A model generated the notes under the pieces. It searched no databases. It was given only the letters and a program-made list of their open reading frames with translations, and had not been told where the DNA came from. Made by a program: the position numbers and the translations under genes. Shown in pieces: positions 10,253 to 13,200 of a stretch of 64,000 nucleotides of DNA. Positions within the stretch are counted from its first letter, which is position 1, and every line of letters begins with the position of its first letter. This DNA is from an uncultured Pseudomonadota bacterium (lineage in GTDB: Bacteria > Desulfobacterota > Binatia > Binatales > Binataceae). The DNA lies in assembly GCA_963837035.1 (NCBI GenBank), contig CAWIMH010000035.1:20319-84318 (forward strand). Direction: 5' to 3'.

Positions 10253-13200
10253 ATGGCGCAGTCGCAGGTCACGAGTAATCTTCGCCTTCGGCGGTCCTTC
10301 GGCAAGATCAAAAAGATCATCGATATTCCCGAATCTGATCGAGATCCAGAAGCGGTCGTACGACGAATTTCTACAGGCGGGCGTGGCGACCGAGCAGCGG
10401 ACGGATACCGGGTTGCAGGCGGTGTTCAAATCGGTCTTCCCGATCAAGGATTTCAACGAAACCGCCTCGCTCGAATTCGTCAGTTACGAACTGGGTCAGC
10501 CCAAGTACGACGTGGACGAATGTCACCAGCGCGGGATGACTTACGCCGCGCCGCTCAAAGTCAAGATTCAACTGGTTATCTGGGACGTCGAGGGCGGGCG
10601 CCGCTCGATCAAAAACGTCAAGGAGCAGGAGGTCTATTTCGGCGAGATTCCGCTGATGACGGGTAACGGGACCTTCATGGTGAACGGCACCGAGCGCGTC
10701 ATCGTCTCGCAATTGCATCGGTCGCCCGGGGTGTTCTTCGAGCACGACAAGGGGCGGACGCATTCGACCGGGAAGCTGCTGTACTCGGCGCGGATAATTC
10801 CCTATCGCGGGAGCTGGATCGATTTCGAGTTCGACCCGCGCGACGTGCTCTACGTCCGCATCGATCGGCGGCGGAAGTTTCCCGCGACGGTGCCGCTGCG
10901 CGCGCTGGGACTCACCACCGAAGATCTGCTCAACTATTACTACAAGAAAGACGTCATCAACCTCAGCGACAAGCAGATCACCAAGGGGTTCATCCCCGAC
11001 CAATTACTGGGTGGGCGAGTAACGCACGAGGTGCGCGATCCCAAGTCCGGCGAGTTGGTGGCGCGCGAGGGGCGCAAGTTCAACAAGGCGATCCTGCGCC
11101 AGCTCGAGGCGGCCAAAATCACTGAAATCCCGATCGCGCTCGAAGACGTGATCGGACGCGTGTCGGCCCACGATATCGTCGATTCGACCACCGGCGAAGT
11201 CCTGATTCAGTGCAACGATGAGCTGACCGAAGAGACGGTGGAGAAGCTCAAGACCCACGGCGTCAAGAAGTTCGAGGTCCTCTACACCGAGGACCAGGCG
11301 GGCGGCGGACCGCTGCGCTTGACCCTGGCGCAAGACAAGCTGACCACGCCCGAGGAGGCGATCATCGAGATCTACCGGCGGCTGCGTCCGGGCGATCCGC
11401 CGACGCCGCAGACCGCCAATTCATTTTTCAACAACCTGTTCTTCAATCCGGAGCGCTACGACCTCTCGAAAGTGGGACGGCTCAAGCTGAACCACAAACT
11501 GTTCAAGGATCCACAGCGCGTGCCGCTGGAGCAGGGGACGTTGCGGCGTGAGGACATCCTGGAAGTCGTCCGCTACCTGATCGAGCTCAAGAATGGCGCT
11601 TCGGATCGACAGGTCGACGATATCGACCATCTGGGCAACCGCCGCGTGCGCGCAGTCGGCGAGTTGGTCGAGAACCAGTTTCGCATCGGACTCGTGCGGA
11701 TGGAGCGTGCGATCAAAGAGCGGATGAGCCTGCAGGATATCGAGACCCTGATGCCGCAGGAGCTGGTCAACTACAAGCCGGCGTCGGCGGTGATCAAGGA
11801 GTTCTTCGGCTCGTCGCAGCTTTCGCAGTTCATGGATCAGACCAATCCGCTGTCGGAGATCGCGCACAAACGGCGGCTGTCGGCGCTGGGCCCGGGCGGT
11901 CTCACCCGTGAGCGTGCGGGCTTCGAGGTACGCGACGTCCATCCGACGCATTACGGACGGGTCTGTCCGATCGAGACGCCGGAAGGGCCCAATATCGGGC
12001 TAATCGCGGCGCTGTCGACGTACGCCCGCGTCAACGAATACGGGTTTATCGAGACGCCCTATCGCGAAGTGGAGAATGGGCGCGTCACCGAGCGGATCGT
12101 CTACCTCTCCGCGCTGGGCGAGGAGGACAAGGTGATCGCGCAGGCGAACGCTCCGCTCGACGCGCACGGACGGTTCAGCAACGAGCTGGTCTCGGCGCGC
12201 AAGGGCGGCGAGTTCACGGTCGCGCGTTCCGAGGAAATCCAGTACATGGACGTGTCGCCCAACCAACTGGTGTCGGTGGCGGCTTCGCTGATTCCGTTTC
12301 TCGAAAACGACGACGCCAATCGCGCGCTGATGGGTTCCAACATGCAGCGCCAGGCGGTGCCCCTGCTCAAGACCGAGGCGCCGCTGGTCGGCACCGGGCT
12401 CGAACGAACGGTCGGGCGCGACTCGGGGGTGACGACGAGCGCGAAGCGCGATGGAGTGATCGAGAGCGTCGACGCGGAACGCATTGTGGTGCGCGCCGAC
12501 CGGCCCAACCGCGATACGCGTGACGCCGGCGTAGATATCTACAACCTGGTCAAGTACCAGCGCTCCAACCAGAGCACCTGTATCAACCAGCGTCCGATCG
12601 TGGGCAAGGGCGAGCGGGTCAAGGCCGGCGACGTGCTCGCCGACGGTCCCTCGACGGACATGGGCGAATTGGCGCTGGGTCGCAACGTGCTGGTCGCCTT
12701 TATGCCGTGGGGCGGTTACAACTTCGAAGACTCGATCCTGATTTCGGAGCGCGTGGTCAAGGACGATCTGTTCACCTCGGTGCATATCGAGGAATTCGAG
12801 TGTATCGCCCGCGACACCAAGCTGGGACCCGAGGAGATCACGCGCGATATCCCCAACGTCGGGGAAGAGGCGCTGAAGGATCTCGACACCAGCGGAATAA
12901 TCCGGATCGGCGCCGAAGCGCGTCCGGGCGATATCCTGGTGGGCAAGATCACGCCCAAGGGAGAAACCCAGCTTTCGCCCGAGGAGAAGCTGCTGCGTGC
13001 GATTTTCGGGGAAAAGGCCGGTGAGGTGCGGGATACCTCGCTGCGCGTGCCGCCCGGAGTTGAAGGGGCGGTAATCGACGCGCGGGTTTTCGCGCGCCGC
13101 GGGGTGGCGCGTGACGATCGCACCCAGGAGATCCAGAATCTCGAGGCCGAACGGCTCAAACAGGATGAAGGCGAAGAGATCCGGATTATCCGTCAGGAAG

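Follow-up and report, generated by a model that had tools for sequence, protein, structure and literature searches.

The analysed stretch of DNA (the window, 64,000 nucleotides in length) stems from an uncultured bacterium of the Binataceae (class Binatia), and its otherwise normal rpoB gene, encoding the β-subunit of RNA polymerase, is interrupted after 25 codons by a single extra base at positions 10328-10331. We put the probability that this base is a sequencing, consensus-calling or assembly error, or at most a non-representative variant that ended up in the consensus, at approximately 90%. This reading, which we infer from the assembled sequence and not from reads, is based on the absence of the extra base from every good-quality relative, the conservation of both flanks, the lack of stimulatory elements for frameshifting at the site, the presence of a second insertion in the window, and the frequency at which broken rpoB genes are found in related loci. 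The living cell would then contain GAT ATT CCG AAT CTG at the site (or ATT CCC AAT, or ATC CCG AAT), for which the expected error-free strings are ATTCCGAAT (or ATTCCCAAT, or ATCCCGAAT), and conventional translation from ATG 10253, with no recoding, would produce an RpoB protein of ~1375 amino acids.

The rpoB locus and the position of the frame break

According to the map of open reading frames (ORFs), the window contains, in this order, nusG, rplK, rplA, rplJ, rplL, rpoB, rpoC, rpsL, rpsG, fusA, tuf and a long ribosomal-protein operon. The nusG gene (7092-7679) was recognized by the Pfam domains NusG and KOW, whilst the genes of the cluster, including rplK, rplA, rplJ and rplL (7763-10048), were assigned by their position and size. 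When one genome of each GTDB species was scanned with the N-terminus of the repaired RpoB, the best matches were found in MAGs of Binataceae/Binatia, the nine closest of which show 85-90% amino-acid identity. Directly after rplQ, two PmbA/TldD-family metallopeptidase paralogues with three Pfam domains each are located in tandem (38865-40325 and 40210-41694).

A Shine-Dalgarno (SD)-like sequence, GAGAGGTAG, can be read directly at positions 10241-10249 of the plus strand, ahead of the ATG at 10253, and its spacing places initiation of rpoB translation at this ATG, i.e., in frame 0. In the relatives, GAGGT is present at an equal distance from the ATG (alignment A1). From the start codon, frame 0 is RpoB-like through the ATT at 10325-10327 (codons 1-25; 10253-10327, plus strand), after which unrelated residues follow up to a stop codon at 10664-10666. 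The resulting ORF of 137 amino acids has no Pfam match. Its out-of-frame tail (10332-10666, plus strand) is no gene and exists only because of the insertion; in the codon model, this segment belongs to the +1 frame. In that frame, conserved RpoB sequence runs uninterrupted from the CCG at 10329-10331 to the stop codon at 14376-14378, so that codon 26 to the stop occupies positions 10329-14378 of the plus strand, shifted by +1 with respect to the frame of the start codon. No ATG, GTG or TTG is found in this frame upstream of GTG 10383. A Viterbi analysis of codon usage, trained on the window's own long genes, located the frame switch at 10325/10326. The claim of an earlier, sequence-only reading of this DNA that the start of rpoB and its conserved continuation are in different frames is, thus, borne out both by the two translations and by the Viterbi switch.

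The stretch 10322-10337 reads GAT ATT CCC GAA TCT G and can be parsed at the junction as GAT ATT CCC G AAT CTG, with CCC at 10328-10330 and the G at 10331; the consensus string of the window with the extra base is ATTCCCGAAT. Removal of one base from the CCC run yields an RpoB protein of 1375 amino acids in which IPNL is restored and in which the Pfam domain RNA_pol_Rpb2_1 begins at residue 27. The sequence-only reading explained the shift by an extra C and considered a homopolymer error. Its coordinates and its one-base repair are exact and an error is indeed supported, but the homopolymer is one option only, as the base may equally be a G or a T. Because the relatives vary at this position (ATT CCG, ATC CCG or ATT CCC), an additional C, an additional T (turning ATC into ATTC) or an additional G after CCC would all fit their variants.

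Comparison with relatives and the integrity of both halves

In alignment A1, all relatives (12-13) are one base shorter at the site than the window, with the pattern ATY CCS AAY. In the relatives generally, the isoleucine codon is ATT or ATC and the proline codon is CCG, CCC or CCA, which is followed directly by AAY where the window has CCCG (10328-10331, plus strand). Genomes and JGI metagenomes were searched with a codon-degenerate pattern for FGKIKKII[D/E]IPNLIEIQK that permitted 0-3 arbitrary nucleotides at the site, and at least 120 metagenome stretches were matched. Among the matches listed, with 200 loci counted, the spacing at the site was intact in 124 of 126 motif matches, and the +1 spacing of the window was found in none of these 126 relatives. 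The two exceptions (L102 and L115) carry a one-base deletion, not an insertion, at the Ile-Pro junction (GAGATCCGAATCTG), at positions 2087 and 1065, respectively, on the minus strand of two JGI contigs (the pair Ga0179591_1085846 / Ga0182025_1346585). In both of them, pieces of rplL and rpoB are found in three different frames, and these contigs are simply error-ridden. The possibility that these deletions mark a recurrent indel hotspot was rejected, since both contigs are full of frameshifts.

The closest of the 200 loci (L195) shares 88.6% DNA identity over 642 nt with the repaired window, with 0 gaps, and reads GATATTCCGAATCTG at the site, which is exactly the repair that had been proposed in the sequence-only reading. 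When one base is taken out of the window, its alignments with the top 25 relatives are essentially gap-free. As no same-species sequence was found in the collections searched, where the nearest sequence has ~88.6% DNA identity, the comparison of the site reaches family level only. Likewise, a look-up by exact sequence retrieved no record for the L7/L12 protein of the window, the window's contig was absent from the gene-position index, and an exact pattern of the 40-nt flanks with a free gap at the site had 0 matches in JGI metagenome contigs. The comparison with orthologous rpoB DNA of relatives that had been put forward as a check of the insertion has, therefore, been made at this level, and its outcome is the intact spacing in nearly all of the matches listed.

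When 5.8 billion proteins were searched with the repaired N-terminus, the best of the matches listed had 90% identity. All 120 matches listed are at most 729 amino acids long, although RpoB measures ~1370 amino acids, and these lengths were not used as evidence. Two of the database proteins (P0018 and P0120) combine the Pfam domains of ribosomal L7/L12 and of RpoB in one product; they may represent read-through gene calls over rplL-rpoB in relatives.

Both sides of the break bear the marks of a functional gene. When codons 1-25 were compared in frame 0 with those of 79 gap-free relatives, 659 synonymous versus 120 non-synonymous codon differences were counted. By this measure, these codons are under strong purifying selection as RpoB coding sequence, and there is no decay upstream of the break. 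In the rest of RpoB, the window differs at 11 positions that are invariant in six close relatives. Identical scoring of five of these six relatives gave 4-10 differences, whilst the sixth, L007, is itself frameshifted. The similar numbers indicate that rpoB contains no further garbled stretches. Judged from these substitution patterns, both halves have been maintained as one protein until now. Unless the break is spurious, it must have arisen extremely recently.

Broken rpoB genes are common in public assemblies. In 16 of the 200 relatives' loci, rpoB is distributed over more than one frame, with the breaks at scattered positions. Such split genes are found in L007 (5038-5080), L064 (6223-6266), L043, L055, L099, L108, L114, L121, L131, L156, L161, L169, L171 and L173. 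In L007, the sequence is GCGAAATCGC where the conserved peptide requires GCGAATCGC, i.e., an A2-to-A3 insertion. L064 is the cultured isolate Archangium gephyra PVMSAZ and, being a cultured strain, must have a working rpoB, even though the gene is broken in the record; L043 and L055 are MAGs with 'MFD…' isolate names. The 16 split loci have the appearance of indel errors that were left uncorrected in the public records.

Ribosomal frameshifting and other unlikely explanations that assume a real insertion

The tRNA-Pro with anticodon UGG reads all four CCN codons. At the break, a +1 slip of tRNA-Pro from CCC to CCG restores the wild-type protein exactly, and the geometry of the site is permissive. 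The codon in the A site in frame 0 is GAA, which accounts for 328 of the 776 Glu codons (42%) in the window's genes. CCC-G is present in frame 76 times in these genes, which means that these four nucleotides alone do not suffice for efficient shifting. The 15 nt upstream of the site (AAGATCATCGATATT) contain no GGAGG- or AGGA-like match to an SD-like element, folding of the segment 10300-10420 revealed no more structure than that of shuffled sequence (z = +0.75), and an Rfam scan of the window detected a tRNA-Trp only and no known RNA element at the site. Since frame 0 is open for 111 further codons past the site, ribosomes that do not shift would make a junk protein of 137 amino acids.

C3 and A5 are the longest runs in the vicinity of the site, and no run of more than five is present in rpoB-rpoC. 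The A5 run (10310-10314) was considered as a place for transcriptional slippage and rejected because of its insufficient length; slippage there would also turn KIIDI into RSSIF in the product, thus altering five conserved residues. In insect endosymbionts, transcriptional slippage at long homopolymers rescues frameshifted genes, for which ~9 or more A or T residues are needed. The situation in the window resembles these cases in that an essential or conserved gene is frameshifted in the DNA whilst a functional product is to be expected, but it differs from them in that only the C3 and A5 runs are available. Initiation at the downstream codons GTG 10383 or CTG 10335 was also rejected, as neither is preceded by an SD-like sequence and the product would lack conserved residues.

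Viable E. coli cells with a +1-nt insertion in rpoB have been described, in which 5% slippage on CCC-AGG-C is combined with a ~4.7-fold translational up-regulation (Huseby et al., 2020; PMC7022156). This insertion affects a central part of the gene (residues 531-534), and rifampicin resistance was selected (PMC7022156). The sequence-only reading is, therefore, too absolute in denying that a viable cell could have rpoB as a pseudogene, as this E. coli gene remains functional via slippage. The window shares with the E. coli gene the +1-nt insertion, the CCC at which a +1 slip restores the frame, and the capacity of tRNA-Pro to re-pair on CCN. By analogy, the insertion could be real and be bypassed by non-programmed +1 slippage, during which CCC (10328-10330) re-pairs with CCG (10329-10331), with feedback-raised rpoB translation compensating for the low efficiency. 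The CCC is located exactly at the junction, the slip onto CCG would not cost any amino-acid change, and the undecayed flanks would also suit a very recent real mutation. Nevertheless, we consider this explanation very unlikely. Whereas the slippage in E. coli depends on a very rare 'hungry' codon following CCC, i.e., AGG, the rarest codon, in the A site, the sequence in the window is CCC-GAA-U, with an abundant codon in this position, and the many other in-frame CCC-G sequences in the window's genes also speak against slippage. Furthermore, the E. coli mutant was selected with rifampicin, whereas codon 26 is far from residues 531-534 and an insertion there has no evident benefit, and the insertion is present in 0 of the 126 relatives among the matches listed. 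If a Binataceae bacterium did live with a real insertion at codon 26 by slippage on AUU-CCC-GAA without a hungry codon, together with feedback up-regulation, it would provide in nature what the E. coli rpoB case represents in the laboratory; we regard its existence as very improbable.

Another arrangement would be a programmed +1 frameshift that evolved to regulate the synthesis of the β-subunit in this lineage, as in prfB. The shift site of prfB, the gene for release factor 2, is CUU-UGA-C. Its A site is occupied by an in-frame stop codon, an SD-like element is located 3 nt upstream, and most bacteria have retained this site. Both sites have in common the +1 direction and a P-site tRNA that is able to re-pair one base downstream, and all that pleads for programming is that an essential gene breaks at a site where tRNA-Pro can re-pair. 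Unlike in prfB, the A site in the window contains neither a stop nor a slow or rare codon in frame 0, an SD-like stimulator and structure are absent, and the site is conserved in no relative, neither in alignment A1 nor in the 126 relatives among the matches listed. In addition, unshifted ribosomes would proceed through the 111 open codons and produce the junk protein mentioned above. Programmed frameshifting is, therefore, extremely improbable. The insertion could also be real in a cell that produces an N-terminally truncated RpoB of 1331 amino acids from GTG 10383, or it could reside in a dead or defective copy of the genome. Among canonical start codons in the +1 frame, GTG 10383 comes first, and the truncated product would keep almost all Pfam domains. 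However, it would lack 44 residues, including a conserved block and the first 18 positions of RNA_pol_Rpb2_1, and its GTG is without a preceding SD-like sequence. Moreover, the purifying selection on codons 1-25 in frame 0 implies that the N-terminus is used, which makes truncation highly improbable. The sequence-only reading had ranked an error first and ribosomal frameshifting far behind. We arrive at the same order, since the insertion is unique among the 126 matches listed, stimulators are lacking, a second insertion is present, and rpoB is broken in 16 of 200 loci.

Assembly quality and the possible origin of the extra base

The second one-base insertion is located at positions 44866-44880 of the plus strand in a gene for a monocarboxylate-transporter-like protein of the MFS, and was detected both by a split Pfam match and by the Viterbi analysis. 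Positions 1-59 of the Pfam domain MFS_1 are encoded in the ORF 44611-45042 and positions 64-253 in the ORF 44882-45895, which are in different frames, with the frame switch at 44872/44873. Removal of one base from GTC GAG GCA GCG gives ...LLDRVGQRYVMGIG..., and the repaired protein aligns straight across the junction with the lactate transporter of PDB entry 6g9x. The repaired junction restores the sequence 'DRxGxR', which we take to be MFS motif A. This break may reflect a second error of the assembly, or the gene may be a genuine pseudogene.

No other clean frame break than those in rpoB and the MFS gene was found in the 64 kb in the Viterbi passes. With a low penalty, the Viterbi analysis produced many short spurious switches, and only these two are flanked by long coherent segments. 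The frames of rpoC, fusA, tuf, ~30 ribosomal protein genes, secY and rpoA are uninterrupted over ~50 kb, showing that the assembly is not generally poor. In total, two net +1 insertions are present in ~57 kb of coding DNA. Two other genes, rplE (28901-29605) and rpsK (35947-36429), were considered as broken genes and rejected, as they are intact and have low-complexity N-terminal extensions. These extensions are rich in Lys, Ala, and Pro and comprise ~55 residues in uL5 (234 amino acids) and ~35 residues in uS11 (160 amino acids).

Gene-fragmenting indels in long-read assemblies are described in two reports (PMC12007338, PMC8103633), and a third describes how collapsed alleles give apparent frameshifts in mixed populations (PMC8445201). 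The break in rpoB resembles such assembly indels, being an indel of one base within a short run that is found in one assembly only and affects a conserved gene of which the halves are otherwise intact, whilst a second break is present on the contig and similar breaks are found in the rpoB genes of 16 of the 200 relatives' loci. It differs from them in that two breaks per ~57 kb of coding DNA represent a low error rate and in that the run measures only 3 nt. The otherwise clean ~50 kb and the presence of only three C's, which is below the length of the homopolymers that are usually troublesome, speak against an error. Also counting against an error are the fact that the site permits tRNA-Pro to re-pair from CCC onto CCG and the possibility that the MFS break could be a real pseudogene.

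Both insertions can be written as two merged alleles, i.e., CCC and CCG giving CCCG, and GGG and GAG giving GAGG. Possibly, a strain-level wobble polymorphism between CCC and CCG, which are both common in the relatives, was collapsed to CCCG in the consensus. The insertion in the MFS gene, with GAGG in place of the expected GGG or GAG, would fit such a collapse of alleles. On this basis, both insertions may tentatively be attributed to an artefact of the consensus in a mixed population.

The position of the break has practical consequences. As RNA_pol_Rpb2_1, the first Pfam domain of RpoB, begins one residue after it, a gene caller may start at GTG 10383 and report a plausible 'complete' RpoB protein of 1331 amino acids. 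If the extra base is an error, a truncated RpoB N-terminus could, thus, enter protein databases and marker-gene phylogenies unnoticed. In that case, the contig is also flagged as carrying approximately one indel per 30 kb, and other broken genes in the genome should not be considered pseudogenes without a check of the reads. If the insertion were real, it would constitute a natural example of an essential gene that is kept through ribosomal frameshifting, but nothing supports that reading.

Some further features of the window concern genes of a different composition. A dCTP-deaminase-like gene (49419-50018) contains an in-frame TAA at 49647-49649, and the match to positions 1-150 of the Pfam domain DCD spans this stop codon. 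The gene is located in an island with a GC content of 47.7% at 49-50 kb, as compared with a mean of 60% for the window, and is probably a decaying, horizontally acquired gene. Lower GC contents (50-58%) and a poor fit to the host codon model were also found at both ends of the window (1-6700 and 60600-64000). The ORFs in these blocks have no Pfam match, except for those of a weakly matching TPR protein (4815-6107) and a faintly GIY-YIG-like ORF (61257-61541, minus strand). A tRNA-Trp gene (6730-6806) is located between the first of these blocks and nusG. Both blocks may represent integrated foreign DNA.
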